Shown here: positions 1-47,644 of the stretch, one piece after another
Layout of the letters: the number at the start of each line of letters is the position of its first letter
Position numbering within the stretch: the stretch's first letter is position 1
Assembly (NCBI GenBank): GCA_964512835.1
Contig: CAZELA010000003.1
Span: 15,516 to 79,515, forward strand
DNA from: an uncultured Candidatus Saccharibacteria bacterium
Lineage (GTDB): Bacteria; Patescibacteriota; Minisyncoccia; Phycocordibacterales; UBA2100
Length of the DNA stretch: 64,000 nt
Direction: 5' to 3'
The notes under the pieces: generated by a model
What the model was told of the DNA's origin: nothing
Database searches by the model: none
The model's input: only the letters and a program-made list of their open reading frames with translations
Position numbers and translations under genes: made by a program

Positions 1-2712
1 GTTTGCAACGTTAGCCTTGATCGTGAGGGTGACATCCGTGTCCTTCGGCAAGTTTACCGGCGTCGAGAGTGTCGACGTAGCAATCGTGCTGCCAGAAGTG
101 AACGTGGCTGTACCAACCTGTGTCGCACCGTTCCAGATCGTGACCTGGATGAAGTCTGCCGAGCTTGTTGCAGAACCCTGGAGACCGAGCTCAGTGAGCG
201 TCATGTCTTCAGAAGTACCGCGGAGCTGGAAGGCACCGATGGTAACGCCGGTCGAAGCGCCCGCAGCAAAAGCGTAGGACGGAGACGACGGAGACGTTGT
301 AACTACGAGCGAGCTGTTTCCAACAGTCTGTGTGCCACTGTTAGAGATCGAGATCGTGAGATTCGTTCCCTGTGTGAGGCTGTTGCCAGACTGTACGCCC
401 GTTGCAGAGAAGGTACCACCAACCGTCGTAACACCTGTGGTGTATGCACCAGAAGCGAGCGACGAAAGGTTGCACTTAACTCCGAGCGTGACTACCGTAC
501 CCTTTGCAATCGTCAACGAATTGTCGAACGTAAAGGTGTTCTGCCCTGCCGAGATGGAAGACGGAACATTGGAGCCCGTGTTAACCGCTGACGATCCGTT
601 CCAGAGCTGGCACGAGCTTACGCCAGTGTTGCTCGAGAAGTTGATCGGGAGCTGGTTAACTCGGATGTCTTCACCCGACTGCGAAGCATCCAACTGGATG
701 TTCGCAAGCAAGACCGCAGAACCACCAGCAACGATCGTCTGAGCTGCCGGCTGAGCCGCAGCAGAGATGTTGAGGGTAGCACCACGAACGGTCATCGTAT
801 TCAGCGAGAAGGATGCTGCCGGGACAACTACAGTATTACCCGTAGTCTGACCGGTTACACCCGTCCAGTTTGCCGTGTTGATTGAAGCAGCATAGGTTGC
901 ACCGTTCGGTACGCCCGTAGCTACCTTACCCTTGATCGTGTAGACGTGTCGACCAGACTTGAGTGTGATCGAGTTGTTGAACGTGACCAAAGTGTTTACA
1001 GCGTCAACCGGACCAGCAACAACGACACCTGCGTCATCGACGAGGGTGACGTTCGTAAGCTGACCGGAAGAGCTCGTTGCAGTACCGTAGATGTTAATCG
1101 CCATGGTCTGAACCGTAAGCGCTTCACCCTTGATGTCTGCTACGAAGCCGCCGAGAGGCTGGTTCGAAACATTGATTGCAATGTTCTGCGACGGAACTTC
1201 CGTTGCGCGAGCAACAGTCGTAACCGACGAGCCCTGGACCAACACGGTCGAGCCCTGGAAGAACGGCTGTGCGTTCGTCGAGCCGGAACCATAGAAGCCA
1301 GAACCGTGTGCCGAAGCAGTCGACGGTGTCGAGCCATTGTACGACGCAGTCGGCGTGATGCCGTAGCCGTAGGTCTGACCGACAACGTAGATGTCAGATG
1401 CACGATCGATGTCCAACTCGATAATTCGAGAGTTCGAGTTCGAACCGGTTACATCACCCTGTACGTAGACATCGAGCGAGTTGCCCTTCGTCATGAGAAC
1501 GCCACCAGCGATCGTAGTCGTGTAGTAGCGACCGTCAGCCGAGAGAACCGTCGGGTAGCTGGTGCCCTCAACTACAGTCATGACATTCGAGATGTCAGAT
1601 GCAGATGCGGAACCATTGAGGCGCCATCGGATCGAGAAGAGGCGTACATCCTCAGCAGCACCCGCAGTCAAGCGGATACCCGAGAACTTAACCGCAGTGT
1701 CACCGATGTTCTTGGTGAGACCAGCGTTCGGATCGAACGAAGATCGTTCCATTGTCGCAGTACCGACAGCCAACGAGTTGTTGATCGTCTGGTTAGCACC
1801 CGAGATCGGGAGAGAACCGGAGACCGTGCTCGTCGTCTGGATACCAGTGACCTGGAGAGCAGCGACCTGACCAGCGTAGTTGGTGAGATCAGATGCCATG
1901 TTGCCAGCGATCGTGAAAGTCATTGACTGACCCGGCTGGAGCATCATCGATTCACCGACAGTCGCCATGTGGTTCGTGTCGAACGTTCGCGGAGTTCCAA
2001 TCTGGAGTCCGTTCTGATCGAGGAGAACAACACCTGCGAATGCAGCGTCAGATGCGAGACCGGCGCGAGTGACCGTCACGCCCGTAACCGTAACTGCAGC
2101 ATTCGACGTGTTCGTCAAAGTGAAGTTCGTGAACGGAACGCGCGATGCGCCCTTCGGAGCAAGCGAGTTTGCCGGCTGAGCGCCTGCAGTAACCGCGAGC
2201 GTACCCGGAGTGGTGTTACCGCCAGTGTTGCCACCGGTGTTACCGCCAGTCGTCGTGCAGAGGGCGTTTGCCTTTGCGCGAGTTGCAGCGAACCAGTTAC
2301 CAGTACCCTTCGACAAGCCCGACGGAGTCAAGATGTCAGCTGCGTACTTCTCCTGGAACTTGATCACAGCTGCTTTCGTAGCCGGACCGAAGGTTGAAGT
2401 CTCGTTTCCTGCTGAACCAGCGCCGCTAGCTGCGACCATGGTGTCAGAAGATTTGTTAAGGAATTTCTGCAAGTTCATGACTTCAGTTCCCTTTGAACCC
2501 ATCTTGAGGTTCGCTGTGAACGTGAAGGAGCACGAGGAGCTCGAAGAGCTACCAGAAAGTGCAGAGATCTGTGCGAGCAATGCGTTGATCTGAGCCTGGA
2601 GGTCAGAAACGGTATCTGCCTTTGCCGGTGTGGCGAAAGCAAAAACCGAGAGGACCATACCAATACCCAAGAGCACTGCTGCAACATTCTTTGTTGCTAA
2701 AGCTTTACTCAT
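1..2712 (-). CDS. Large secreted cell-surface protein (signal peptide, PG_binding_1-like domain, long Thr/Ser/Gly-rich beta-repeat region). Start codon at 2712; 3' end lies beyond the window's left edge.
   Basis: I checked all 904 minus-strand codons (reverse complement of 1..2712) and found no in-frame stop. The N-terminus is MSKALATKNVAAVLLGIGMVLSVFAFATPAKA|DT, a classic signal peptide with an AxA cleavage site. The following 'KMGSKGTEVMNLQKFLN...FGPATKAAVIKFQEKYA' matches the peptidoglycan-binding-domain-1 pattern. The plus-strand ORFs in the track across this region are Arg-rich antisense artefacts. The ORF track omits this gene because it runs off the window. Confidence 0.78.
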   Translation of the reverse strand, partial: MSKALATKNVAAVLLGIGMVLSVFAFATPAKADTVSDLQAQINALLAQISALSGSSSSSSCSFTFTANLKMGSKGTEVMNLQKFLNKSSDTMVAASGAGSAGNETSTFGPATKAAVIKFQEKYAADILTPSGLSKGTGNWFAATRAKANALCTTTGGNTGGNTGGNTTPGTLAVTAGAQPANSLAPKGASRVPFTNFTLTNTSNAAVTVTGVTVTRAGLASDAAFAGVVLLDQNGLQIGTPRTFDTNHMATVGESMMLQPGQSMTFTIAGNMASDLTNYAGQVAALQVTGIQTTSTVSGSLPISGANQTINNSLAVGTATMERSSFDPNAGLTKNIGDTAVKFSGIRLTAGAAEDVRLFSIRWRLNGSASASDISNVMTVVEGTSYPTVLSADGRYYTTTIAGGVLMTKGNSLDVYVQGDVTGSNSNSRIIELDIDRASDIYVVGQTYGYGITPTASYNGSTPSTASAHGSGFYGSGSTNAQPFFQGSTVLVQGSSVTTVARATEVPSQNIAINVSNQPLGGFVADIKGEALTVQTMAINIYGTATSSSGQLTNVTLVDDAGVVVAGPVDAVNTLVTFNNSITLKSGRHVYTIKGKVATGVPNGATYAASINTANWTGVTGQTTGNTVVVPAASFSLNTMTVRGATLNISAAAQPAAQTIVAGGSAVLLANIQLDASQSGEDIRVNQLPINFSSNTGVSSCQLWNGSSAVNTGSNVPSSISAGQNTFTFDNSLTIAKGTVVTLGVKCNLSSLASGAYTTGVTTVGGTFSATGVQSGNSLTQGTNLTISISNSGTQTVGNSSLVVTTSPSSPSYAFAAGASTGVTIGAFQLRGTSEDMTLTELGLQGSATSSADFIQVTIWNGATQVGTATFTSGSTIATSTLSTPVNLPKDTDVTLTIKANVAN

Positions 2713-2818
2713 ATTTTAGTTTTGACCTTTGTATTACATGTTCCCTATTAAAAGGAGAACACGGAACCGTGCACGTATTCATTCGACGTGAATACCTGCC
2801 CGTTTTTTGCGAACACAC

Positions 2819-2835
2819 TGTCTATTAAATAGACA
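2819..2835. promoter_or_regulatory. Perfect 17-bp palindrome TGTCTATT-A-AATAGACA in the AT-rich region upstream of the surface-protein gene; candidate operator site.
   Basis: Read directly from the sequence. It sits in the ~620-bp AT-rich non-coding region 2713..3332, about 110 bp upstream of the ATG at 2712. Confidence 0.3.
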
Positions 2836-3332
2836 ACGTGTCCACTAATAATTTATTGCTAACCCGAGCTTCTTGTTAATAGTCGACGCGAAGCAACGGG
2901 AGTAGCAGCGAATGGGAATGTGCCGTAACTGAGTTTCTATCCTGTCGGAATAATCTGAGCGGCGTGAATTCATGAGCACTCGTACATACAAGTATTTGTA
3001 TGTTCATGCATCATGAAAACGTGGTGATGCGATCACCGTAACGTTGTTTCAATATGTAAATGTCAAAGATCGACACAGAGGGCTTTCGCTTCCCTGTGCA
3101 ACACATCCAATGGATGCGTCCGCACAATTATATACTGGAAGCACTTTTAGACCCGTCTGAGCAAAACTCCGTTTTGTGGATAACTTGTGAGTAAAAAGGC
3201 CTCATTTCAAGCCCCTTTTGCCCTCGCAAGTTACCGGGGCAGGATACTGCACCGCCACACTGGAGTCAATTAAGGAGACGTGCGTACCGACCATATATTT
3301 CACGCCAAAACAGCGCCGGAATTGCGGGTATT

Positions 3333-4121
3333 TTAAACGACCGAATAGCGGGACCATCGCTTCAGACCGCTCTTTGTGACCTTGCCATCCGCGACCAGGG
3401 TCAGGAGCTCACGCTGGATCATCTTTTCGCTGTATTCGGGCAAATTCGAGCAAATGTCCTTAATACCCATGGAGCCGCTGGATCGAAGAATTTCCAATAT
3501 GCTTTGAGTCCGCACGCTCATTTGTCCGTTATGTGTGACAGTCTTCACCGCCGAAGCAGCGACCTCCCGTGTATCCGTTGCCTCCCCCGCAACACGAACG
3601 TCTTTTATGTCCTTTACTGCATAGGTCGCAGCGCGAGCGGGCAATGTTCCGACATCCAATAGCTCATCCTTTGATATAACGACACTTTCTGAAAAGTTTG
3701 TTCGCTGCGATACATGCATAAAATTGCCAAGCTCATCGAGCGCTTCAACGATGGCGCTCACATTTTGGGTAGAAGCAAATCCGGATATCGCCAGCATCCG
3801 CACCAGTGATATGAGGTGGCGGATCGAAGATACAACAGACACAACTCCACCGGAGTTCGACGAACGCATATCATCTCGGACCGAAAGCACTGACGACAGC
3901 ATCTGCATGGATTCCCTCCGAACCAGCCCGCGCAACGGCTCATCCTGATCAACGTGGTTGGTCAACAAATGGACTGCTGCCGCGATTCGCTCAGCACGAC
4001 GATAGGCTCTATCGGCCGCTCGATTATCACCAAAAGGATTCAAACGGACATTCTGAGAGTCGAAGAATTTTCCGAGATTTTCCGTCTTTTGTATGTCCTT
4101 ATTGTCGTCCATTTTATGCAT
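3333..4121 (-). CDS. Hypothetical protein with a C-terminal winged-helix-like segment
   Basis: 262-aa ORF. The C-terminus 'SILEILRSSGSMGIKDICSNLPEYSEKMIQRELLTLVADGKVTKSGLKRW' looks like an HTH/wHTH domain. I recognise no family for the N-terminal part. Confidence 0.5.
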   Translation of the reverse strand: MHKMDDNKDIQKTENLGKFFDSQNVRLNPFGDNRAADRAYRRAERIAAAVHLLTNHVDQDEPLRGLVRRESMQMLSSVLSVRDDMRSSNSGGVVSVVSSIRHLISLVRMLAISGFASTQNVSAIVEALDELGNFMHVSQRTNFSESVVISKDELLDVGTLPARAATYAVKDIKDVRVAGEATDTREVAASAVKTVTHNGQMSVRTQSILEILRSSGSMGIKDICSNLPEYSEKMIQRELLTLVADGKVTKSGLKRWSRYSVV

Positions 4122-4298
4122 GAATATGTCCTTTATTTATATCGGACATATGTATTGCAGACGGATTATATAAAGGACGACCGAAAACGCAATGTTCTGA
4201 GTAACGGCCGATAATGTCAGTGCGGGAACCGCTAATGAATGGCTCAATGCCTGGGTTTTTTGCCGCTTGTCCGATGTAGCGCGTGCTATGATGTTGCC

Positions 4299-6542
4299 AT
4301 GAAAGACAAGGCAAAAGAGAAGCCGAAGAGGAACACAAGGAAGAAAGATCTCGATTCGTCAGACTCCGCGGGCGTGATTAGCAGCGAGGCGCTTCGCGGT
4401 GTGATCGCTATTTTTCTTTTTGCAGTTTCGGGCTTTCTGTTGCTGGCACTTCTTGGCGTAGGGGGTGCGGTTGGAGCCGCGCTCTATAACGGACTGACAT
4501 GGCTATTGGGCGTCGGGTATCTGCTCTTGCCGCTTTCTATGATCATGCTCGCGGTCTTAATATTCCGCTCGCTTGAACGCAGCGTCTCGTGGGTGCACGT
4601 GATATCGATGGTCATCTTTTTGCTTTCGGGCCTCGGATTAACCGCGCTTGCGTATCCGATGGCGGGCGGCGTTTTGGGTGACGCGATCGCACAACCGATC
4701 GTGGCTGCGGTCGACGTGTTTGCTACGGTCATATTCCTCCTCGCGTTCACCGTTATGGCACTTGTGGTCGCGTTCGATATCAACCTCGGCGAAGTCGTCC
4801 GCTGGTTCAAGAGCCTGGTGAGCCCGTCAGAATTCCCGAACGAGCTTGCGCCGGTTGCACTCGACGATGTACCGGTGACCGGACTTTCCGTCGAACCGGA
4901 CGACCACGATGAGCGCGCACCGGCACCGGAACCTGTCGCAAAAAAGGAGAAAGAGCCGGAAATCAAAAAATTCTCCGACAAGGTATCGGATGATGTCGGC
5001 GGATTCCCGATCACCGCAGCAACCGGTTCAACCTACACACCTCCCCCGGCAACACTCCTTGCCAAGAATAAAGGTAAGCCCGAAGTCGGCGATGTGAAGG
5101 CCAACATGAACATCATCAAGCGCACGCTTCAGAATTTCGGTATCCAAGTAGAAATGGACGAAGCGAACATCGGACCGACCGTCACGCGCTACTCAATGAA
5201 ACCCGCAGAAGGCGTGCGTCTTGCAAAGATTGTGGCCCTGCAGTCGAACCTGGAACTCGCGCTCGCGGCATCCCCTGTTCGTATCGAGGCTCCCATTCCG
5301 GGTAAGTCGCTCGTCGGTATCGAAGTGCCGAACATATCGCGAACAACACTCGGTATGGGCCCGCTCGTATCAGACGACGGATTCACCGGCTCCGAAAAAT
5401 CTCTTTTGATGGCCCTTGGTCGCACCATTACCGGTGCGCCGCAATACGCGGATCTTGCCCGCATGCCCCACCTGCTTGTAGCGGGCACCACCGGCGCCGG
5501 TAAATCCGCCACGATCAACGACATGATCGTATCGCTCTTGTACCGATGCGGACCGGAGCGCCTTCGGTTCATCATGGTTGACCCGAAACGCGTTGAACTC
5601 ACGCTCTACAACCCGATCCCCCACCTGCTTACCCCCGTCATCACCGATGCCAAAAAAGCGATCCTTGCGCTCAAGTGGCTCGGAAAGGAAATGGAACGAC
5701 GCTATAACATCCTTGAAACGGAGCGTGTCCGCGATATCGGCTCATACCACGAGACCGTGCTCAAGCCGGCGCTCGAAAAAGGTCCGCAAGACGGCAAGCC
5801 GATGCCGGAAGCGATGCCCTATATCGTGCTCATCATCGACGAATTGGCCGATATCATGACGTCGTACCCGCGCGAACTCGAGGGCGGCATCGTTCGACTT
5901 GCTCAAATGAGCCGCGCTGTGGGTATTCACCTCATTCTCTCGACTCAGCGACCGTCGGTAAAAGTGATCACCGGCCTCATCAAGGCGAACATCCCCGCCC
6001 GACTGGCGCTCCAAGTGTCATCGCAAATCGATTCGCGCACTATTCTCGACATGGGCGGGGCAGAATCGCTGCTCGGCGCCGGCGATATGCTCTTTTTGTC
6101 GGGTGAAATGTCAAAGCCGAACCGCGTACAGGCGCCGTATATATCGGAGGCCGAAGTAAAAAGCGTGGTGGCATATATCGAAAAGCACAACGAACCGACA
6201 CTTGCTACCAGCATGGACATGGGTGAACACAATATGGGAGGCAAAGACGCCATATTCTCGTCGATGATCGGGGGTGACGGAGACGAGGAAGGCGACGAAC
6301 TGTACCCGGAAGCGAAGAAGACCGTAATAGAGGCCGGCAAGGCATCAACCTCGTACCTGCAGCGCAAGCTCGGTGTGGGCTACGCACGCGCTGCCAAACT
6401 CATGGACCTGTTGGAAGAGCGAGGCGTGATCGGCCCGGCAGACGGCGCGAAGCCTCGCGAGATCATAGGCGCGGGAAATGCCGATGAGCTCGCTGCGGAG
6501 CCGACTGGAGAAGATTACGCGGAAGATCCGCGAGAGAACTAA
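4299..6542 (+). CDS. ftsK: DNA translocase FtsK/SpoIIIE
   Basis: N-terminal multi-TM region, Walker A 'GTTGAGKS', FtsK motor conservation and a C-terminal gamma (wHTH) domain 'TSYLQRKLGVGYARAAKLMDLLEERGVI'. Start moved to MKDKAKEK (ATG 4299); the track start at 4239 is probably upstream read-through. Confidence 0.95.
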   Translation: MKDKAKEKPKRNTRKKDLDSSDSAGVISSEALRGVIAIFLFAVSGFLLLALLGVGGAVGAALYNGLTWLLGVGYLLLPLSMIMLAVLIFRSLERSVSWVHVISMVIFLLSGLGLTALAYPMAGGVLGDAIAQPIVAAVDVFATVIFLLAFTVMALVVAFDINLGEVVRWFKSLVSPSEFPNELAPVALDDVPVTGLSVEPDDHDERAPAPEPVAKKEKEPEIKKFSDKVSDDVGGFPITAATGSTYTPPPATLLAKNKGKPEVGDVKANMNIIKRTLQNFGIQVEMDEANIGPTVTRYSMKPAEGVRLAKIVALQSNLELALAASPVRIEAPIPGKSLVGIEVPNISRTTLGMGPLVSDDGFTGSEKSLLMALGRTITGAPQYADLARMPHLLVAGTTGAGKSATINDMIVSLLYRCGPERLRFIMVDPKRVELTLYNPIPHLLTPVITDAKKAILALKWLGKEMERRYNILETERVRDIGSYHETVLKPALEKGPQDGKPMPEAMPYIVLIIDELADIMTSYPRELEGGIVRLAQMSRAVGIHLILSTQRPSVKVITGLIKANIPARLALQVSSQIDSRTILDMGGAESLLGAGDMLFLSGEMSKPNRVQAPYISEAEVKSVVAYIEKHNEPTLATSMDMGEHNMGGKDAIFSSMIGGDGDEEGDELYPEAKKTVIEAGKASTSYLQRKLGVGYARAAKLMDLLEERGVIGPADGAKPREIIGAGNADELAAEPTGEDYAEDPREN

Positions 6543-6555
6543 CGTACCCGCTCGT

Positions 6556-6975
6556 ATGCTTCCCTACCGCGATGGCCGTCTTACCCGCATCGCTCTCGTC
6601 GTGTTCTTTTTGCTTATCGTGGGATACGCGTACTACGAGGCGCGGGGCGTTTTGTACGGACCGAACATTCAGCTCTCATCCGATATCCAAGAGGTGCACG
6701 ACCCGTTCATTGCAATTCAGGGAAAAGCTGACCGCATAGCGGAGCTATCCATGAACGGACGGCCTATTTCGGTCACGGAAGACGGCGCATTCGATGAGCC
6801 CTACCTGCTCTCTCCGGGATTGAACCGTATTATGCTCGATGCAACCGACCGATACGGCAGAAAGACGCAGCAGATTGTAGAGGTGGTGTACACCCCTGAT
6901 CCCAACGCCCCGACAGGCTCGCTCCGAGCAACATCCACCCCTCCGGAGGCGTCCACAACCCCTGAAACACCGTAA
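6556..6975 (+). CDS. Hypothetical membrane-anchored protein
   Basis: The track ORF 6478..6975 overlaps the ftsK 3' end. The internal Met (MLPYRDGRLTRIALVVFFLLIVGYAYY) begins just after the ftsK stop, followed by a TM anchor. No family recognised. Confidence 0.55.
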   Translation: MLPYRDGRLTRIALVVFFLLIVGYAYYEARGVLYGPNIQLSSDIQEVHDPFIAIQGKADRIAELSMNGRPISVTEDGAFDEPYLLSPGLNRIMLDATDRYGRKTQQIVEVVYTPDPNAPTGSLRATSTPPEASTTPETP

Positions 6976-6999
6976 GGTATACTGAATTTATTACCCGCA

Positions 7000-8088
7000 T
7001 TGAACCAACACGATATGGCACTCGGAACGAAAAAAGCGAAAGCAGCACCGAAAGAAACAGGTACCGGTACGGATAAAGACATCGAACGGGCACTCTCTGA
7101 TATCAAAACTAAATTTGGCGACGACTCGATCATGATGCTCGGCGCCACCCCGAAGGTGGATGTGAACGCGATCCCGACGGGATCTATCGGCGTTGACTGG
7201 GCACTCGGCATCGGGGGCATCCCCCGCGGTCGCATCGTCGAAATATTCGGCCCCGAATCGTCCGGCAAAACTACGCTGTCGCTGCATGCAATTGCCGAAG
7301 CACAGAAAAAAGGCGGCATCTGTGCATTCATCGACGCAGAACATGCGCTTGATCCGGAATATGCCAAAAAGATCGGCGTCGACATCGCTTCACTCCTGGT
7401 TTCTCAGCCTGATACCGGTGAGCAGGCGCTCGAGATCGTGGAATCGCTCGTTCGCTCCGGAAAGATCGATATCATCGTCGTTGACTCGGTTGCAGCCCTC
7501 ACCCCAAAAGATGAGATCGAGGGCGATATGGGTCAGTCACACGTCGGCAAGCAAGCGCGCCTCATGTCGCAGGCGCTGCGCAAATTGACCGCCATCGTCT
7601 CCAAAACGAAGACCGTTGTTATATTCATCAACCAGATCCGTATGCAGATCGGTGTGATGTTCGGTAATCCCGAAACGACGACCGGCGGCAAGGCACTCAA
7701 ATTCTATACATCGGTCCGCATCGACATCCGACGTATCGCGCAGATCAAAAAAGGCGACGAAACAATGGGCGGACGTCACCGTGTGAAGATCGTAAAGAAT
7801 AAGGTGGCAGCTCCCTTCCGTGCGGTTGAGTTCGACATGATGTACGGCGAAGGCATCTCGCGCGAAGGCGAAGCGCTCGCGCTCGGCGAAAAGCTGGGCC
7901 TCGTTCAAAAGTCGTCCGGCGGTTCATACACTATCGGCGACATCAAACTCGGTCGCGGCTACGATGCGGCCCGTACATTTCTCCGCGAGAACAAGCCGAT
8001 CATCAACGACCTCCTGAAAAACATCAAAAAACAGCTTGCCGAGAACGGCATGAGCTCCAAAAGCTCCGGCAGTAGCAGCGACGAGTAA
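7000..8088 (+). CDS. recA: Recombinase RecA
   Basis: '[10 protein letters not shown]' Walker A and end-to-end RecA conservation ([36 protein letters not shown]). Confidence 0.97.
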
Positions 8089-8108
8089 GTCAGGTTCAGC
8101 AAAACAAG

Positions 8109-8138
8109 AAACCCTCGTGGATGCACGAGGGTTTTTGG
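8109..8138. terminator. Rho-independent terminator after recA (ACCCTCGTG-gatg-CACGAGGGT plus T-run)
   Basis: Hairpin and U-tract read from the sequence. Confidence 0.7.
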
Positions 8139-8488
8139 TATGGGTACCGGCTCACCTCCCCCGGGACCGGGAAAGAAGCGCACGACGCGGGGGCACAGGA
8201 GCATGTAGAGCACAAACACCTGCATGCCGGTGGCAATGACGCACCATTCCGTCGCAACGAGCAGGAGCAAACGCTCGAGCGACTGATCCGGCGACGTGAA
8301 CGTGAGCGCGAGCGCCACAGAAAGCGTGGCCCACGATACGGTCGTCATGATCCAGGCTCGAAAGAGCTCGGACGAGTCGCAAACCATCGATGATCGCATC
8401 GGTCTCTCCTGTGTTGTTCCGCAGGCAGCCTATCACCCCGATCGCTCGGTGGACAAGGGCCCGATTTTGGCTACAATGCTTCAAATTT

Positions 8489-9055
8489 ATGGCAATGCTC
8501 GCATACAACGAAGTCCTCCCGAAAAGGATCATCATTATCGACGACGAACCGTACGAAGTGCTTTCTGCGTGGGTATTCCGCAAGCAGCAGCGCAAGCCGG
8601 TAAATCAGGTAAAGCTCCGAAACCTCAAGTCCGGATCGATGGCGGAACACACGTTCCATGTGTCCGATAAGGTTGAAGAGGCCGACATTGAGAACCGTAC
8701 CGCCATGTTCATTTATGAGCGCAACGGCGAATGGTTCTTTCACGAATCAAAGGACAAGTCGAAGCGCTTTACGCTCACCCAGGAGCGCATCGGAGACGAA
8801 AGCAAATGGCTCAAACCAAATACCGAAGTTGATGTGAAGTGGTTCGACGAGAAGCCGATTCAGGTTACGATACCGATCAAAGTAGAGCTCAAAGTAACCG
8901 AAGCGCCGCCGAACACGCGCGGAAACACCGCACAGGGCGGCAACAAACTTGTGCAGCTTGAAACAGGCGCAGCGATCACAGTCCCGATGTTCGTAGAGAC
9001 CGGTGACATCATCCGCATCAATACACAGACCGGCGAATACGTGGAGCGCGTGTAA
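8489..9055 (+). CDS. efp: Elongation factor P
   Basis: 'MAMLAYNEV...KLRNLKSGSMAEHTF...' EF-P KOW/OB domains. Start moved to the internal ATG at 8489; the track start at 8390 is upstream read-through. Confidence 0.93.
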   Translation: MAMLAYNEVLPKRIIIIDDEPYEVLSAWVFRKQQRKPVNQVKLRNLKSGSMAEHTFHVSDKVEEADIENRTAMFIYERNGEWFFHESKDKSKRFTLTQERIGDESKWLKPNTEVDVKWFDEKPIQVTIPIKVELKVTEAPPNTRGNTAQGGNKLVQLETGAAITVPMFVETGDIIRINTQTGEYVERV

Positions 9056-9118: not shown

Positions 9119-9691
9119 ATGCCCCCGACACCGGTACAGGAGACCTATCAAAAGGGCTCGATATGGCCGACGATCGGCACGATCGTGCTGCTAATTGTGA
9201 TCCTCCTGCTCGGAGCCGCGATGTACATATCATACGGACACAATAAGCAGCTCGCTCACGAAAATTCTGACTTGAAGGTTCAGGTGCAGGCCATAACAGC
9301 GGACAAAGAAGCGCTAACCCTTCAGGTGAACGACCTTGCAAAGAAGCTTGCAGAGATCGAGTGTGACGGCGTGTGGAACGGCACATCGTGTGACCCCTAC
9401 CCCGTGACGATCGAAGCTAAGGCTGCGTCGGGCACATCGCCGTTCGCCGCAAGCTTTACGGTTAAAGCCAAGAGCTCGAGGTACGAAGTAGATTACTCGG
9501 ACGGCTCGGCGGTTTCGCCGCTTTCAGCAGCGACCGGTGACTGCGTACCGAAAGCCGACGGTTTGTGCGAATTCAAACTATCGCACGTATTCAAAAACAC
9601 GACCGAGAACGACGCCACATTTGAGGTAAAAATATCGAAGGGCGGTAAGGCATCGGCTTCGATGGTCGTTACAGTGTCGGGGAAGAAATAA
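9119..9691 (+). CDS. Hypothetical membrane protein with a coiled-coil segment
   Basis: Probable start MPPTPVQ. One TM helix (IGTIVLLIVILLLGAAMYI), then 'ENSDLKVQVQAITADKEALTLQVNDLAKKLAE' coiled coil and a Cys-containing C-terminal domain. A terminator follows. Confidence 0.55.
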   Translation: MPPTPVQETYQKGSIWPTIGTIVLLIVILLLGAAMYISYGHNKQLAHENSDLKVQVQAITADKEALTLQVNDLAKKLAEIECDGVWNGTSCDPYPVTIEAKAASGTSPFAASFTVKAKSSRYEVDYSDGSAVSPLSAATGDCVPKADGLCEFKLSHVFKNTTENDATFEVKISKGGKASASMVVTVSGKK

Positions 9692-13094: not shown

Positions 13095-13904
13095 TCAGAT
13101 CTTGAACACGCGGTTCGCGTTTTTGAGCAACTGCTGCCGTACGAATTCCTCGTCCTCGCCGCGAATACCGGCAATCGCTTGTACGATGTACGGGATATAC
13201 GACGATTCATTGCGCTTGCCCCGAAACGGTACGGGCGTGATGTACGGCGCATCGGTTTCGGAGAGGATCATGTCGAGCGGCGCGTTCTTCACAACCTCGT
13301 CGTAGTCGTGTGTAAACGTGAGTACGCCGGTGAACGAAAGCGTGAATCCGATATCGAGGAACTTTTTTGCCATGTCCCAATCCCCTGCGAAGAAATGAAC
13401 GTCGCCCGTTACTTTCGTATGGGCTTTTAATACTTCGAGTGCGTCTTCGTACGCGTTACGGATATGAAGCATGAGCGGTTTACCCGTCTTGTTTGCAAGC
13501 TCTATGTGCTCGATAAACGCTTTTGTCTGGACGTCCTTGGTCGTTTCTTCGACGCGATAGTAATCCAACCCGCACTCACCAATGGCAATGACCTTTGGCG
13601 ACGCAGCCAATGCCTCATATGCCGCGGCATCAAACTGTTCACCACGTGAGGTGAACTCCTTTCCGCCCTCCCCCAACTCCTTTTCATCGTGGTAGGACTT
13701 GGCCGTATGCACCGGATGCAAACCGATCGTCGCATATATGCCGTCATGTTTCTCGGCGAGCTCCACAGCTTCACGAGATGTGTCGATCTGTGTACCCACA
13801 ACATTCATGCCGACACCTGCGTCGAACGCGCGCTTGATGACCTCGTCGCGGTCGTCTTTGTACGCCACGAAGTTGACGTGGGTATGAGCGTCGAAATATT
13901 TCAT
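13095..13904 (-). CDS. tatD: TatD-family metal-dependent hydrolase/DNase
   Basis: 'MKYFDAHTHVNF...' TatD signature. Start moved to MKYFDAH, 2 nt downstream of the metG stop. Confidence 0.88.
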   Translation of the reverse strand: MKYFDAHTHVNFVAYKDDRDEVIKRAFDAGVGMNVVGTQIDTSREAVELAEKHDGIYATIGLHPVHTAKSYHDEKELGEGGKEFTSRGEQFDAAAYEALAASPKVIAIGECGLDYYRVEETTKDVQTKAFIEHIELANKTGKPLMLHIRNAYEDALEVLKAHTKVTGDVHFFAGDWDMAKKFLDIGFTLSFTGVLTFTHDYDEVVKNAPLDMILSETDAPYITPVPFRGKRNESSYIPYIVQAIAGIRGEDEEFVRQQLLKNANRVFKI

Positions 13905-24400: not shown

Positions 24401-27283
24401 TTAGATCTCCAACGTAACACGCTTCTTCGGTGCTTCGACAAAATCGATCGCGAGCACCCTGGTCGCGCCGGAGAGTTCACCCACGAATTGCTTGAGGATC
24501 GCAATCTCGTCGCTCGGCGCTTCGATGACCGCGCGTGTAACGGAGTCTGCCGGTGCGAGATTCGCATCCTTGCGAGCACCCTGCAACAGGCGTCGTACTT
24601 CGCGCACCAGTCCTTCCTGCAACAACTCTTCCGTGACGGTGGTATCGAGCGATACGCCGACACCGCTCTCAAACCGGACCTCTTTGACGTTCACCTCATC
24701 CTTAATGAGTTCAAGAAACTCATTGATGCCCGGTGTCTCGGCGCCATACACATCGGTCGTGCCGATCGCGAGCATGCGCAGCGGCTGACGGACATTCAAC
24801 TTCTTGTCCTCTCGCTCTTTGAGCGCCTGGGACACAATGAGACGCGTCGCGAACATGCGTGTAAGCAGCTGCGCAGCATCGGTGTCATGCGCCAGCATTT
24901 CCGGCCACGTAGAAAGGTGGACGCTTTCTTCGTCCTCTCCTTCGCGTACGGCTTGGAACAGGTACTCAGCATAGAACGGCATGGTCGGAGCCATCACGCG
25001 CGAGAGCGTATGCAGCACATAGCGCAGCGTCGCCAGCGCCGCTTTTTTATCCGAACCCTCCTCTTTGAATCGCTCACGGGAACGGCGCAGGTACCACACG
25101 GACAGGTCGTCGATGAACTGCGGAAGCGGCCGCACTGCCTCGTCGAGCTCGTACGCCTCGAACCCTTCGGTTGCTTCACCGACCAGGGCATTTACACGAG
25201 CGATGATCCACCTGTCCAGAACGTGTGCACTCTTGAAGTCTCGGACCGTACCGTCTTCATAGAGTTTGTAGAATTCGAGCACGTTATTGAGGCGACCGAT
25301 GTTCTTCTTGAGCGTTTCGTCGACTCCGTTTTCCGAGAAGTTCAGGTTCTCTGCTTTCAAGAGCGGCGACGAAAGCATGTACAAACGCAACGCGTCGGCT
25401 CCGTACTTGTTGATCACATGCATCGGGTCGGGATAATTGTTGAGACGTTTCGACATCTTCTTGCCGTCTTCGGCGAGCACGATCCCGTGCGCCACGACGT
25501 TCTGAAACGCGTTCACATTGAACGTTGCTCCTGCGAGCACGTGCAGGTAGTAGAACCATGCACGGAACTGACCCGTGTATTCGGTTATAAACTGGGCCGG
25601 GAATGTTTTCTCGAACCGGTCTTTGTTCTCGAAGGGATAGTGCACCTGGCCGTACGGCATCGATCCTGAATCGAACCATGTGTCGAGCACATCGGGAATG
25701 CGGCGCATGGTTTTGCCGCAGGTGCACGGTACGGTTACCTCGTCGATGATGTGTTTGTGGAGGTCGTCGACGGTGGTTCCGCTCGCCGCTTCGAGCTCTG
25801 CGACCGATCCGAATACACGCTGGGTTTTGCACGATTCGCACACCCACATCGGAATGACGCTCGCCCAGAATCGCTGACGGCTGATGCCCCAATCCTTGGC
25901 ACCTTCGAGCCATTTACCGAATAACCCCTCCTTTATATGCGACGGTGACCAGTTCACGTTCTGTGCGGTTCGGAGTAACTCTTCTTTCAGTTTTGAGACC
26001 GAAACGAACCACGACGATGTCGCGTAGTTCAACAGCGGAGTGTCGCAACGCCAGCAATGCGGATACGAGTGCGTGATGTTCTCTTTTGAAAAGAAGGTAC
26101 CGTGGCCCTGAAGATATTTGAGTACCGCGATGTCCATCGCCATGCGCACGCGATCCTCGGCGTTCGGCTTAACTTCCATGCCGGCAAAGTCCGTAACCTC
26201 GGACTTAACCGTCCCGTCAAAGTTCACATGCTGCACGAACGGCAGATTCACCTGCTTCAGCAGCTCCCAGTCTTCGGCACCGAATGCGGGCGCTTCGTGT
26301 GCGATACCGGTACCGCTATCAGCCGTGATGAAATCCGCTGCGTAGATTTTCCAACCGTTCTCGCGATTCTTGAGCGTTTCGTCTTTGGCGTAGTAATCAA
26401 AAAGCGGCACATACTGTTTGCCGACGAGTTCACTACCCTTCTGCGTTCGAACGACGCCATACTCCTGTCCGCCAAAAATACTATCGAGCCGATCTTTGGC
26501 GAGAACGAATCGAACCGTCTCCCCCGTCCCGTCGTCCTTTTTCTCGACAGTCACGTAGTCGATATCCTTGTTGACCGCGAGTGCGACATTTCCCGGGAGC
26601 GTCCACGGGGTTGTGGTCCAGGCGAGGTATGACAACTTCGGGTCCTCAACGGAGCGAAATTCGGCGGTCACCGAAATATCCTTGATCTCTTTGTAACCCT
26701 CACTCACCTCTTGTTGGGAGAGCGTAGTCTCGCAGCGCGTGCAGATGTGCATCGAGCGGTAGTCCTCATACACGAGACCCTTGTCGTAGATATTCTTGAA
26801 CACCCACCACACGCTTTCCATGTAGGGCTTATCCATCGTGCGGTACGCGTTCTGCATATCCACCCAGCGGCCCGTACGCGGAATGATCTGTTCCCACTCG
26901 TGCGCATACGTCATCACTTGATCACGGCACGCCTCGTTGAACTTCGCGATACCGAAGTCCTTGATGTCTTTTTTGTGTTTAAAGCCGAGCTGTTTTTCGA
27001 CGATGTTCTCGATAGGCAGTCCGTGACAGTCCCACCCCCACACACGAGGGACCGAGTAGCCGCGCATGGTTTTGTATCGCGGTACGACGTCTTTGATCAT
27101 GCCGGTCACGAGGTGGCCGTAGTGCGGCAGACCGGTTGCAAACGGCGGTCCGTCGTAGAAAACAAATTCACCGTTCGGCGCGTCCTGCGCAACCGATTTC
27201 TCGAAAATCTTGTGCTCGTTCCAAAACGCCAGGATCTCCTCCTCGCGCTTGGCAACCCCTGATTTGTCGGCGTTTTCAGCCAT
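24401..27283 (-). CDS. ileS: Isoleucyl-tRNA synthetase (type 2, eukaryote-like)
   Basis: 'PPFATGLPHYGHL' (HIGH), 'KMSKRLNNYPDP' (KMSKS), CP1 editing domain and zinc-binding Cys cluster; 960 aa. Confidence 0.97.
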   Translation of the reverse strand: MAENADKSGVAKREEEILAFWNEHKIFEKSVAQDAPNGEFVFYDGPPFATGLPHYGHLVTGMIKDVVPRYKTMRGYSVPRVWGWDCHGLPIENIVEKQLGFKHKKDIKDFGIAKFNEACRDQVMTYAHEWEQIIPRTGRWVDMQNAYRTMDKPYMESVWWVFKNIYDKGLVYEDYRSMHICTRCETTLSQQEVSEGYKEIKDISVTAEFRSVEDPKLSYLAWTTTPWTLPGNVALAVNKDIDYVTVEKKDDGTGETVRFVLAKDRLDSIFGGQEYGVVRTQKGSELVGKQYVPLFDYYAKDETLKNRENGWKIYAADFITADSGTGIAHEAPAFGAEDWELLKQVNLPFVQHVNFDGTVKSEVTDFAGMEVKPNAEDRVRMAMDIAVLKYLQGHGTFFSKENITHSYPHCWRCDTPLLNYATSSWFVSVSKLKEELLRTAQNVNWSPSHIKEGLFGKWLEGAKDWGISRQRFWASVIPMWVCESCKTQRVFGSVAELEAASGTTVDDLHKHIIDEVTVPCTCGKTMRRIPDVLDTWFDSGSMPYGQVHYPFENKDRFEKTFPAQFITEYTGQFRAWFYYLHVLAGATFNVNAFQNVVAHGIVLAEDGKKMSKRLNNYPDPMHVINKYGADALRLYMLSSPLLKAENLNFSENGVDETLKKNIGRLNNVLEFYKLYEDGTVRDFKSAHVLDRWIIARVNALVGEATEGFEAYELDEAVRPLPQFIDDLSVWYLRRSRERFKEEGSDKKAALATLRYVLHTLSRVMAPTMPFYAEYLFQAVREGEDEESVHLSTWPEMLAHDTDAAQLLTRMFATRLIVSQALKEREDKKLNVRQPLRMLAIGTTDVYGAETPGINEFLELIKDEVNVKEVRFESGVGVSLDTTVTEELLQEGLVREVRRLLQGARKDANLAPADSVTRAVIEAPSDEIAILKQFVGELSGATRVLAIDFVEAPKKRVTLEI

Positions 27284-27300
27284 ATTCGATGAATCCTATC

Positions 27301-27337
27301 AAAAATCAAAGACCGGCGCGAAAAGCGAGCGCCGGTC
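27301..27337 (-). terminator. Rho-independent terminator (GACCGGCGC-loop-GCGCCGGTC plus TTTGATTTTT on the minus strand), ending 17 nt upstream of the ileS ATG
   Basis: Read from the sequence. The position suggests an attenuator or leader for ileS as well as a terminator for the upstream small ORF. Confidence 0.65.
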
Positions 27338-27359
27338 TTGATATGAGGAACGGATTGCT

Positions 27360-27563
27360 CTACCCCGAAACGAGACGGGGCCTGAACGGGGGTTCGACGA
27401 AGTGCTTGCTGTGAATGGCAGCCGGCATGTGTGGACCGGCGGCGCCGGTGAGCCTGGCCAGGTCGGTCGAGTTGTTGCAGATCCCCTGCACGTAGGTGCC
27501 GTTGACGACAACACCGCAGAGCTTGGGATAACTACCGTCGGTCACCTGAGACACATTGTCCAT
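27360..27563 (-). CDS. Small hypothetical protein (67 aa) or part of an ileS leader RNA
   Basis: GGAGGA RBS 8 nt upstream of the ATG and a terminator after the stop. No homologue recognised; may be non-coding leader instead. Confidence 0.4.
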   Translation of the reverse strand: MDNVSQVTDGSYPKLCGVVVNGTYVQGICNNSTDLARLTGAAGPHMPAAIHSKHFVEPPFRPRLVSG

Positions 27564-27662
27564 TCTCGTGTTCCTCCGCTTTTGAGCACAGGAAGCTGAT
27601 CTTCCCTTGCCATGATTAAGCGTACCAACCTCTTGATTTGGAGCAAGCGTTGTATGTGATGT

Positions 27663-27688
27663 AAAAGCCGGCGTTCATGCCGGCTTTT
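27663..27688. terminator. Bidirectional terminator AAAAGCCGGC-gttcat-GCCGGCTTTT
   Basis: Perfect hairpin with A/T runs on both sides. Confidence 0.7.
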
Positions 27689-27705
27689 GTCTTGCGTCGA
27701 GTGCT

Positions 27706-31767: not shown

Positions 31768-32694
31768 TTACTGCGACCCCTCGAACTGCTTGGAGACCCC
31801 GCGACGAGCCCAGGCCCGGAGCGGCGCATCGAGGGCGACATTGAAGATGTCCTCGATGAACTTGCCGAACAGGTAGTTGATCGCGCGGAACGGCCAGTTG
31901 AAGACCCAGGCGACGTAGAGCGTAGTCACGTCGACATGCTCCTGGATGCTCGTGCCGATGCCGGCGTAGTACGTCTCGTGCTTGCGGACGAACTCCGCCC
32001 ACGGGGCGGCGAGTGCCTGGAGACGATAGTTCTTGAGATCGTCGTCGGACTTCGGCAAGGCGTCAGCCTCGGCACGCGCCGCGGCATCGAGCTTGGTCCA
32101 CACGTTGTCGTAGAGCTCGGACCGGCCGTACTTCTTCTTGTCACGCACCGACCTGAGCCAGTCGACGCGGGCATTGTTCCGGCGAACGACGCGCTCCTTG
32201 GCGAGCGCCACGGTCTTCGACTGCGCCGAAAACACGCCGACGATCAGACACGCGATGATGATCGCGCCGAACGCAGCGGCCTTGGCCCAGAATGAGACCA
32301 TGCCGAAGGCTTCGAGCCAGCGGAAGAAGCCGAGGGTGTACAGCATCGCACCGACAAAGGCGCAGATGCCGACGAGGTACGCGGCGACCTGCCAGATGGT
32401 CTCGCGGGTCCTGCCGGTGCGCTCGTCGTCTTCGACGAAGCATTTGCCCAGGCTGACGGCCACGAAGATGCTCGTCACGACGAGCGCGATGACTTCGATA
32501 GCGAACCAGAACCCGGTGGCCGCGAAGACCTTATCGGGACTCGGCGACAACGCGAAGCATGCGACCAGCACGATCGCGAGCCACAGAAATCCTTCCCTCA
32601 CGATCGAGATCGCCGAAACGACCACGAGCATCAAGAGAAAGATCGGAAGCGGAATCCACGCGAGCGGCGCGAGGACAAATTCGAACACCCACAT
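31768..32694 (-). CDS. Hypothetical 6-TM membrane protein with a soluble C-terminal domain; markedly GC-rich
   Basis: 308-aa ORF with ~65% GC codon usage (GCG/GGC/CGC-rich) against ~56% in flanking nusG and rplK. It carries its own terminator. No family recognised. Confidence 0.6.
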   Translation of the reverse strand: MWVFEFVLAPLAWIPLPIFLLMLVVVSAISIVREGFLWLAIVLVACFALSPSPDKVFAATGFWFAIEVIALVVTSIFVAVSLGKCFVEDDERTGRTRETIWQVAAYLVGICAFVGAMLYTLGFFRWLEAFGMVSFWAKAAAFGAIIIACLIVGVFSAQSKTVALAKERVVRRNNARVDWLRSVRDKKKYGRSELYDNVWTKLDAAARAEADALPKSDDDLKNYRLQALAAPWAEFVRKHETYYAGIGTSIQEHVDVTTLYVAWVFNWPFRAINYLFGKFIEDIFNVALDAPLRAWARRGVSKQFEGSQ

Positions 32695-46963: not shown

Positions 46964-47086
46964 AACGTCGCGGCACTGTAACATGACACCCCGCGGAGGG
47001 CAAATGCACCCTATCGCGCGCTCCTGTTGCACTCCTCCCCCTCCTCTATTAAGGTGCCCGCGGGACCAAACAGAAGGAGGGCACCC

Positions 47087-47644
47087 ATGACTGAGACTCT
47101 ATTGAAGATCGGCGTCGCCGGTAACCGCGACACATTGAACCGCATCGAATCCTGGCTGACCTCGGCAATGCAGCAGTACCTGCCGCCGAGGCGTTTCACC
47201 ATCTCGAATCACGATCCGTTCCCGCCGGGACAGAGCAACACCGAAATGTCGACGCTGGTGCGTCCACCCAAGGGCCTCGGCGCGATCCAGTCGCTACATC
47301 ATCGCTCGGGCACGATTGCGCGCGTGATGCTCGAGCGCAATCCCGACATCGACGTGATGATCCGGATCGACTCCGGCGGCCTGCAGATGGACATCCCGAA
47401 GCCGAGCAGCGTCTACCACGACAGCCAGTACGGCGTTGTTGCAACGCTCGCGACGCGACTGAAGGGCGCCGGCGCGATCATGCTGTACTCCAGCTTGAGC
47501 TCGCAGGGCTATCTGGGCGGAAGCGGCGTCGGCCATCGCCAGGAGACGGCAATGTCGGAGGTCGCGATGCAGGGAGTGCTCCCCCGCTGGTGGATGGAAC
47601 TCAGTCGCGGCGTCCACCGGGCGAGCACCGCGCTCGCTGCCTGA
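47087..47644 (+). CDS. Hypothetical protein; GC-rich, probably horizontally acquired
   Basis: ATG preceded by a GAAGGAGG RBS. ~66% GC with CTG/GGC/CGC-dominated codon usage, unlike neighbours. No family recognised. Long antisense ORFs on the minus strand here are a GC artefact. Confidence 0.55.

Follow-up and report, generated by a model that had tools for sequence, protein, structure and literature searches.

A gene cut by the left edge of a 64,000-nucleotide (nt) stretch of DNA (the window; positions 15,516 to 79,515 of contig CAZELA010000003.1, GenBank assembly GCA_964512835.1) probably encodes a surface-layer (S-layer)-type envelope protein, and the 620 nt upstream of it probably form an expression cassette whose two conspicuous inverted repeats act as RNA hairpins, not as operators. 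The DNA is recorded as that of an uncultured Candidatus Saccharibacteria bacterium. An initial annotation, made from the letters alone, had described a giant surface-protein gene missed among the listed open reading frames (ORFs) and had proposed the inverted repeats as operator sites. Our combined findings retain much of that description, while changing the size of the protein and the nature of the repeats.

The surface protein and its gene

The minus strand reads from an ATG at 2712 to position 1 through 904 codons without a stop, as first claimed, and the frame then runs off the window's left edge. In a near-identical strain (JGI contig L001, 96% DNA identity) the frame goes on for 232 codons more, so that it does not terminate immediately outside the window, and the full protein has ~1,136 amino acids (aa). 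This length was read from the C-terminal sequence of L001, the corresponding 232 aa of the present strain lying beyond the window edge. The window holds the first 80% of the gene. It is indeed absent from the ORF list, where only plus-strand shadow ORFs cover it, including the Arg-rich antisense frames already remarked upon (for example 946..1926). The absence is an edge artefact, however, because the ORF lister skips frames that run off an end. The encoded features are:

1..2712, minus strand: partial coding sequence, residues 1-904 of a ~1,136-aa secreted, wall-anchored surface protein (open frame and homologues)
2617..2712, minus strand: Sec-type signal peptide, aa 1-32, predicted cleavage between AKA and D (sequence features)
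2254..2529, minus strand: PG_binding_1 domain, aa 62-153 (Pfam)
1..2208, minus strand: chain of immunoglobulin (Ig)-like/cohesin-like beta-sandwich domains, aa 169-904 (structure model)

The predicted signal peptide (MSKALATKNVAAVLLGIGMVLSVFAFATPAKA, followed by D) has the expected features, as had been proposed: its n-region contains two Lys, its core is hydrophobic (Kyte-Doolittle ~2.5) and it ends in an A-K-A motif for cleavage; residues 1-35 were modelled with a predicted local distance difference test score (pLDDT) below 50. A helix (aa 34-53) and a Ser-rich linker precede the PG_binding_1 domain (PF01471), likewise recognized at the outset, which has a Pfam score just above the gathering cut-off and a three-helix fold. 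The remainder had been called a low-complexity Thr/Ser/Gly/Val beta-repeat region. It is beta-structured and rich in Thr, Ser, Ala, Gly and Val, but it is no low-complexity repeat: the monomer model folds it confidently (mean pLDDT 87) into beta-sandwich domains that are mutually 25-33% identical, and no DNA tandem repeats were found in the gene. Giant adhesins have several thousand residues and, usually, many near-identical tandem repeats, neither of which applies to a protein of ~1,136 aa with such divergent domains. Thus, of the two types first suggested, S-layer protein or giant adhesin, the latter can be set aside and the former is our best reading. The signal peptide, PG_binding_1 domain and Ig-like array correspond to the secretion signal, wall anchor and assembly region of an S-layer protein, although PG_binding_1 is unusual as an anchor among known S-layer proteins.

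We found 1,148 homologues in a database search, with full-length members of 1,110-1,190 residues. All named homologues come from Paceibacteria-type Patescibacteria (Kaiserbacteria, Zambryskibacteria, Paceibacterota), and the relatives detected by a scan of one genome per species span at least 540 species, each under a title of Paceibacteria type. Family identity is kept at 45-78% across the sampled lineages, and 55 columns are invariant across 120 family sequences. Databases name the family only as 'peptidoglycan-binding domain-containing' or hypothetical protein; no NCBIfam name for the protein was found, and our literature searches returned no publication describing the family. There is no paralogue of the gene within the window.

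Codon usage sets the gene apart from its surroundings. Its effective number of codons (Nc) of 33.7 reflects the strongest bias among the 41 long ORFs of the window, most of the others having values of 42-54 (about 48). The preferred codons are GGT, GCT/GCA, GTT, ACT and TCT, together with C-ending codons in the two-fold families and CAG for every Gln. The GC content at third codon positions (GC3) is an ordinary 0.61 and does not explain these preferences, which form the pattern expected for a very highly expressed gene. Because the family is Paceibacteria-wide, has no second copy in the window and shows this extreme bias, we lean towards the view that the gene encodes the main wall-anchored envelope protein, of S-layer type, of an ultra-small bacterium of the Paceibacteria within the candidate phyla radiation (CPR). 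An S-layer-type role is the best reading given the signal peptide, PG_binding_1 domain, Ig-like array and codon bias, as well as the dual promoter and long structured leader upstream. For the high cellular abundance typical of S-layer proteins the evidence is indirect, namely the codon bias and a promoter and leader arrangement like that of slp genes.

Predicted promoters and structured leader

The non-coding gap upstream of the gene (2713-3332) is 620 nt long and has a GC content of 0.41-0.46, compared to ~0.55 in coding sequence, in agreement with the AT-rich region noted before. ORFs cover 93% of the window, and no other stretch free of them is as long; the median non-coding gap at related loci is 681 nt. 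The four closest genomes, whose proteins are 75-78% identical, match it at ~75% identity over the full 590 nt, with long invariant blocks, and an nhmmer profile detects the leader in 29 of 82 loci, in the same place every time. Coding of a small protein or peptide in the leader was rejected, since the gap has no minus-strand ORF of at least 60 aa and indels among close relatives (1 nt, 11 nt) are not multiples of three. The only matches in an Rfam 15 gathering scan of the window were five tRNAs, and a scan of 2600-3450 at E<=10 returned two microRNA-model noise matches and no relevant family. Literature searches found no publication on the leader or on the arrangement of box and promoter described below.

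We propose the following order, 5' to 3' on the minus strand: a promoter (P1), a 57-nt hairpin, a TTATCCACA box, the TATAAT of a second promoter (P2) and a 5' untranslated region (UTR) of ~408 nt. The UTR would open with a hairpin, hold at least six conserved hairpins between invariant single-stranded motifs and close with an invariant block carrying the Shine-Dalgarno (SD) sequence. The most likely role of its hairpins would be to stabilize the mRNA and control translation initiation for very high output. The elements are:

3241..3269, minus strand: P1, with -35 TTGACT (3269-3264), 17-nt spacer and -10 TATCCT (3246-3241) (promoter scan)
3179..3235, minus strand: long hairpin (57 nt) from the predicted P1 start (fold)
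3175..3183, minus strand: TTATCCACA box, an exact match to the DnaA-box consensus; the P2 -10 follows 42 nt downstream
3127..3132, minus strand: P2 -10 hexamer TATAAT, in 25 of 27 aligned leaders
3073..3120, minus strand: hairpins H2 (3120-3100) and H3 (3099-3073)
3058..3069, minus strand: conserved UCUUUGACAUUU block, candidate anti-SD partner (hypothesis only)
3023..3037, minus strand: hairpin H4 (GGUGAUCGCAUCACC), then UUUUCAUGA, of weak-terminator form with a short U-run
2857..2907, minus strand: helix H6, invariant UGCUA...UAGCA and CCC/GGG around a variable hairpin
2811..2843, minus strand: hairpin H-A, with a 17-nt palindrome (2819-2835) as its core (covariation)
2768..2802, minus strand: hairpin H-B, 14-bp covarying stem containing the second inverted repeat (2775-2795) (RNAalifold, pair counts)
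2736..2767, minus strand: hairpin H-C, adjoining the SD block on its 5' side in all 27 leaders
2721..2730, minus strand: invariant AAAGGTCAAA block with the SD sequence, 8-17 nt before the ATG, in 24-27 aligned leaders

Both inverted repeats pointed out in the initial annotation are present exactly as described. The first is a perfect 17-nt palindrome, TGTCTATT-A-AATAGACA, at 2819-2835, with no second copy in the window when up to 3 mismatches are allowed (0.01 matches expected by chance), and the second pairs GTATTCA (2795-2789) with TGAATAC (2781-2775). Covariation was assessed on a sequence-only MAFFT alignment of 27 leaders, with 27-32 related leaders used across analyses. RNAalifold returned exactly two helices from this alignment, at the positions of the two repeats. 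For 13 of the 14 pairs of H-A and H-B, at least one sequence carries a double change that keeps the pair; 90.8% of the cells are paired, whereas shifting the 3' partner by 1-3 columns leaves 43-52% paired, and the covariation score was reached by none of 500 shuffles, for a structure that was itself derived from the same alignment. H-A alone has compensatory changes in 7/7 pairs and 94% of its cells paired. Double changes rose to 20 of 21 pairs when the structure was extended (with the H-B stem at 14 bp) and to 21 of 21 in a model-fitted alignment. A covariance model of the two helices matched once per locus in 32 of 81 sources, always ending at the start codon, and had no match elsewhere in 1.1 Mb.

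The arms themselves change freely. At the position of the palindrome, other genera have TTGTCTTC...GAAGACAA, GTTCCGG...CCGGAAC or GCCCGC...GCGGGC, and in the closest relatives CTCTATT/AATAGAG replaces GTCTATT/AATAGAC; G-U intermediates occur in the arms of both hairpins among related leaders. Pairs kept by compensatory substitutions are the mark of a structured RNA, whereas a palindromic operator should keep a conserved half-site at a fixed position relative to its promoter, and here it is the complementarity, not the half-site, that is kept. Because pairing persists while the arms vary, both repeats are very probably RNA hairpins. That they serve instead as operators for dimeric transcription factors controlling the gene, as first proposed, is very improbable, even though both are true inverted repeats in a regulatory region and the adjacent gene encodes a winged-helix protein in 77 of 82 loci. 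Besides the re-pairing of divergent arms, H-B has an invariant loop (CGUCGAA, 2782-2788) on a variable stem, the opposite of what is expected from an operator; stem length and loop size vary, with a 9-nt insertion in the window relative to its closest relatives; and the sites lie ~290-340 nt downstream of conserved promoter elements, including the -10. A weak promoter-like match just upstream of the palindrome (2879..2850) could be taken as favoring operators, but this sole candidate for a flanking promoter is not conserved in relatives and was rejected, and the palindrome occurs only once in the window.

The conserved promoter elements lie further upstream. In P1, TTGACT and TAnnnT are invariant and the 17-nt spacer is ungapped in the 27 leaders, and the exact pattern was found in the gap at 42 of 76 loci, compared to 3.3 expected. 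P1 thus appears to be a sigma-70-type promoter, with a predicted start near 3234. A hairpin of 55-75 nt begins 7 nt after its -10 and is the minimum-energy fold in 27/27 leaders (z of -2.4 to -6.4), with equivalents in more distant loci. The basal helix of this hairpin (GGUAACUUG/CAAGUUAUC) is 81% paired versus 25-43% in slid controls, with a few compensatory changes. Its apical part, a GC stem with a U5 run (3219-3193; U5-6 across leaders), is shaped like an intrinsic terminator and looks like that of the upstream gene. The 536-nt RNA from the P1 start folds with -187 kcal/mol, compared to -133 +/- 6 kcal/mol for dinucleotide shuffles (z -8.8).

The 3' strand of the P1 hairpin contains TTATCCACA (3183..3175), the only exact copy in the window of a 9-mer that equals the DnaA-box consensus (PMC8203912). 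The box is present in the leader of 71 of 80 loci. In 1.04 Mb of related loci we counted 92 gene-strand copies, 71 of them in the leader, versus ~4 expected per strand. Every one of the 71 leader copies is followed by a TATAAT-like hexamer, and the distance between the two is bimodal, with peaks at 30-32 nt (34 loci) and 40-43 nt (28 loci) that differ by one helical turn. On account of this helical-phase spacing, TATAAT (3132-3127) was taken as the -10 of the main promoter, P2, the start of which is predicted near 3120 and would give the 5' UTR of ~408 nt. The DNA between box and hexamer is variable in sequence and unstructured (mean z -0.5), and a hairpin there was rejected. We also rejected the view that the box is merely the 3' strand of an RNA helix, as it is invariant while its partner changes register in distant lineages, and as the spacing to the -10 is kept in helical phase; the constraint on it therefore acts mainly at the DNA level. 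Such properties would suit a protein-binding DNA site on one helix face relative to RNA polymerase. P1 and P2 both have the conserved sequence features of sigma-70-type promoters. A third promoter at TTGACA (3066-3061) was rejected, having no conserved -10 after it.

Downstream of P2, H2 starts 7 nt after the -10, at the predicted mRNA 5' end, and covaries in 5/5 pairs (H2 and H3 together, mean z -3.0). A stable hairpin begins at the predicted P2 +1 in 80% of 71 loci compared to 32% of controls (p=5e-9), and the best hairpin from the predicted +1 has a median of -13.9 kcal/mol in these loci versus -7.3 kcal/mol at random positions. Further along, the H4 stem covaries (for example GGGUGUCGCACACCC in relatives). 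The base of H6 is invariant and hence uninformative on covariation, while its inner stems differ between lineages; its hairpin loop often carries CGCGUCGAC (2885-2893). An invariant single-stranded ATTATTAG (2845-2852) precedes H-A, and between H-B and the SD block all 27 leaders form the single hairpin H-C from unrelated sequences (mean z -4.0). The UCUUUGACAUUU block is complementary to the invariant AAAGGUCAAA of the SD region, and the two pair with P=0.79 in the window's ensemble; we keep this anti-SD pairing as a hypothesis only, since it is inconsistent among homologues and lacks covariation.

The H6 loop motif CGCGUCGAC and the H-B loop CGUCGAA are related, and their UCGAC/GUCGA segments are complementary, as might be seen with a loop-loop contact or a shared protein site. 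The contact of GUCGAC (H6) with GUCGAA (H-B) was rejected because many lineages lack the H6 motif.

Alternative explanations and genomic context

Several observations weigh against an S-layer-type protein served by a simple stabilizing leader. S-layer proteins are usually poorly conserved, and the identity of 45-78% within this family is atypical of them, though it fits an essential envelope component. The fold matches (PrgB, integrin legs, alpha-2-macroglobulins, a Nitrosopumilus S-layer protein, the CLIPPER domain and Bap) are only to generic tandem Ig and cohesin modules. Sequence comparison shows the gene with its domains, conservation and codon bias, the covariation of H-A, H-B and H2, and the conserved P1, box and -10 with their spacing; the start sites, the S-layer role, an effect on mRNA stability or translation and which protein binds the box are inferred. 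The pairing of UCUUUGACAUUU with AAAGGUCAAA has no covariation support and is the best prediction in only ~10 of 25 homologues. A simple stabilizer leaves the invariant unpaired motifs (the CGUCGAA loop, ATTATTAG and UCUUUGACAUUU) unexplained, which suggests a trans-acting partner. Finally, a terminator-like U-tract follows P1, so that P1 may yield only a short RNA.

The protein could instead serve mainly as an adhesin for attachment to a host, or as some other scaffold in the envelope of an episymbiotic CPR cell, and not as a lattice-forming S-layer subunit: tandem Ig-like or cohesin-like arrays are also typical of fibrillar adhesins, with PrgB, the CLIPPER domain and Bap among the matches, and the family is far better conserved than is usual among S-layer proteins. 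In host-dependent bacteria adhesins tend to diversify rapidly, whereas this protein does not, and its extreme codon bias and dedicated high-output cassette argue for a bulk structural protein. There is also no second copy in the window, and the context is syntenic in 77 of 82 loci; we regard an adhesin or other scaffold as unlikely. P1, for its part, could drive a separate small RNA, ~45-60 nt long and terminated by the U-tract of the first hairpin, instead of a long mRNA isoform. P1 is a canonical promoter, a GC-rich stem with U5-6 lies ~40 nt downstream in ~20 of 27 leaders, and terminator, box and -10 are arranged likewise ahead of other genes. Nonetheless, 6 of the 27 leaders are without a U-tract, and the first 9-12 nt of the P1 transcript pair downstream of it in 27/27 minimum-energy folds, with some compensatory changes; this pairing beyond the U-tract requires read-through, and makes a separate small RNA rather doubtful.

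A regulatory leader that overlaps with our preferred reading, instead of excluding it, deserves somewhat more credence, though it too remains tentative. The leader would then be an attenuator, a riboswitch-like element or a protein-bound RNA that switches the gene on a signal, possibly through the Avd-like winged-helix protein encoded next door, a strictly syntenic candidate nucleic-acid-binding protein. At ~400 nt it is far longer than known stabilizers such as the hairpin in the Lactobacillus slpA 5' UTR (PMC3666127), and it contains invariant single-stranded motifs, the invariant CGUCGAA loop, terminator-like hairpins and a possible anti-SD/SD pairing. This last pairing is inconsistent between homologues, however; we identified no multi-helix junction resembling a ligand pocket and no mutually exclusive alternative pairings backed by covariation, and no Rfam family or known aptamer matches the leader. 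We retain the S-layer-type envelope protein with its hairpin-bearing expression cassette as the preferred explanation.

The TTATCCACA box recurs beyond this gene. Another 21 gene-strand copies lie upstream of other genes. A -10-like hexamer lies within 75 nt of 95% of these boxes, compared to 14% of random positions. The distances cluster near 20, 30 and 40 nt, and the boxes often stand directly after a terminator (examples among loci L008-L072 are L023:10279, L026:10357, L040:9681, L049:9679 and L072:10338). Judged by eye, most of the downstream ORFs have signal-peptide-like or membrane-like N-termini, and their Pfam matches include LCAT-like lipases, a surface protein with Ig-like and PG_binding_1 domains, an LTD-PKD protein and mechanosensitive-channel-like (MscS-like) proteins. 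In L030 a box precedes the winged-helix gene itself. For genes of secreted proteins, the apparent regulon motif is the box and not the palindrome; the sample of additional boxes is biased toward the neighborhood of the surface-protein gene, and the regulon is a lead, not a result. Paceibacteria have very few transcription factors. It is conceivable, if rather speculative, that they use a class of TTATCCACA-dependent promoters for secreted and envelope proteins, with the box ~20, 30 or 40 nt ahead of a TATAAT in steps of one helical turn, bound by DnaA or by the Avd-like winged-helix protein, together with a ~400-nt leader recognized by a partner. If so, DnaA binding to TTATCCACA would couple envelope synthesis to the replication cycle, and the flagship gene would carry a new, class-wide conserved structured leader whose invariant loops (CGUCGAA) are recognized by a trans-acting partner that sets surface-protein output.

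A perfect match to the DnaA-box consensus (PMC8203912) in a relatively AT-rich region also raises the question of whether the 620 nt are, or contain, a chromosomal replication origin, and in the complete genome of L009 the locus is within 6-21 kb of the record start. An origin is extremely improbable, as the region holds a single box and no further copy at one mismatch or fewer, the spacing to the -10 is fixed in helical phase in 71 loci, the box occurs singly upstream of other genes too, and the neighbors are FtsK, RecA and EF-P genes with no adjacent dnaA or dnaN.

The position of the L009 locus, 6-21 kb from the start of its record, hints at an origin-proximal location. In locus L082, several TTATCCACA-like boxes on the opposite strand lie at 9480-9600 and 13330-13470, beside a repeated palindrome, TTGGAAACG(A/T)CGTTTCCAA. 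The second cluster is inside a 547-aa open frame (LTD and PKD), and a coding repeat, a mobile element or a DnaA-box cluster are all possible; being within an open frame and next to a repeated palindrome, the cluster is ambiguous and was rejected as evidence of an origin.

Upstream of the surface-protein gene lies the following feature:

3333..4121, minus strand: 262-aa protein with an Avd-like four-helix bundle, a disordered linker (~50 residues) and a C-terminal winged helix (AlphaFold2, Foldseek)

Of 82 related loci, 77 have this gene immediately upstream of that for the surface protein, in the same orientation. Its Pfam matches to HTH_DeoR and, in homologues, bAvd are below threshold. By Foldseek the bundle has template modeling (TM) scores of 0.7-0.8 to 2gsc, 2rld and an Avd protein of a diversity-generating retroelement, and the winged helix is of the ArsR/BlaI type. 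It is a candidate nucleic-acid-binding regulator, its role at this locus being suggested by synteny alone. A divergent FtsK gene precedes it, and the housekeeping neighbors (4239-9055) also include RecA (7000-8088) and elongation factor P (EF-P; 8390-9055). On the other side, downstream of the surface-protein gene, L001 (3251-5536) encodes a TPR protein and then a HisKA/HATPase_c sensor kinase; a TPR gene is also found downstream in L002 and L082.

Elsewhere in the window, the second-largest ORF-free stretch (27284-27705) spans 422 nt ahead of a minus-strand gene for a class I aminoacyl-tRNA synthetase (24401-27283), and no T-box or other Rfam family was found in it at the gathering threshold. 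Three ORFs have a GC3 of 0.80-0.87, unlike the rest of the window (31768-32694, minus strand; 47027-47644, plus strand; 56573-57607, plus strand). Two of them have a low Nc and one encodes NAPRTase; no Pfam family matched the ORF at 31768-32694, which could be either a shadow frame or a foreign gene.

Comparison with known systems

Some members of this phylum are reported to have S-layers (review PMC13293708), and for the class Paceibacteria the present family is a definite candidate for the main wall-anchored surface protein. In its architecture the protein resembles the Nitrosopumilus maritimus surface-layer protein (8c8o), with a chain of beta-sandwiches after a signal peptide and a Foldseek match at E=1e-6 over ~1,040 alignment columns. 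The TM-score of that match is only 0.2, however, with 8% identity, and integrin legs, PrgB and alpha-2-macroglobulins match equally well; the resemblance is one of architecture and is not evidence of homology. In contrast to SleB, Zn DD-peptidase and phage endolysins, PG_binding_1 is fused here to a non-enzymatic Ig-like array with no hydrolase, and presumably serves only as a wall anchor. Lactobacillar S-layers also differ in this respect, as the anchor here is PG_binding_1 and not SLH, CWB2 or the lactobacillar cell-wall-binding domain.

Stem-loops at the 5' end, of the type found in ompA, protect mRNA against 5'-end-dependent decay. Like the stabilizers in the Escherichia coli ompA 5' UTR, a stable hairpin stands here at the predicted +1 of both P1 and P2; unlike them, it is one element of a much larger conserved leader, and a protective function is suggested by its position alone. 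The TTATCCACA box has its own precedent in the promoter region of E. coli dnaA, where a box lies between dnaAp1 and dnaAp2; here, too, the identical 9-mer is placed between two tandem promoters (PMC8203912). In the present loci, by contrast, it is placed at an activator-like helical-phase spacing (30-32 or 40-43 nt, and ~20, 30 and 40 nt at other genes) and precedes genes for secreted or membrane proteins and not replication genes, so that another factor could recognize it.

The closest parallel is with Lactobacillus slp genes, which combine tandem promoters, a long 5' UTR with a folded 5' end and biased codons; in Gram-positive S-layer genes the long folded 5' UTR lengthens mRNA half-life (PMC3666127). 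Like slpA of L. acidophilus and L. brevis, the present locus, which is known from sequence alone, has tandem promoters, a long folded 5' UTR, codon bias and a single secreted wall-associated protein, here with high expression predicted. The leader differs from that of slpA in its length (~408 nt from P2 and ~520 nt from P1) and its many hairpins, and in being conserved in sequence and structure across many genera, with invariant loop and linker motifs. The two strongly conserved promoters, the box motif that seems to mark secreted-protein genes and the large covarying leader, absent from Rfam, offer reusable handles for genetically intractable organisms, through which metatranscriptomes and in vitro work could test how genes are regulated in streamlined CPR genomes. 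A surface-protein gene with a stabilizing leader is of a known kind, whereas the class-wide conserved, multi-hairpin leader of ~400 nt and the putative TTATCCACA-dependent promoter appear to be new.

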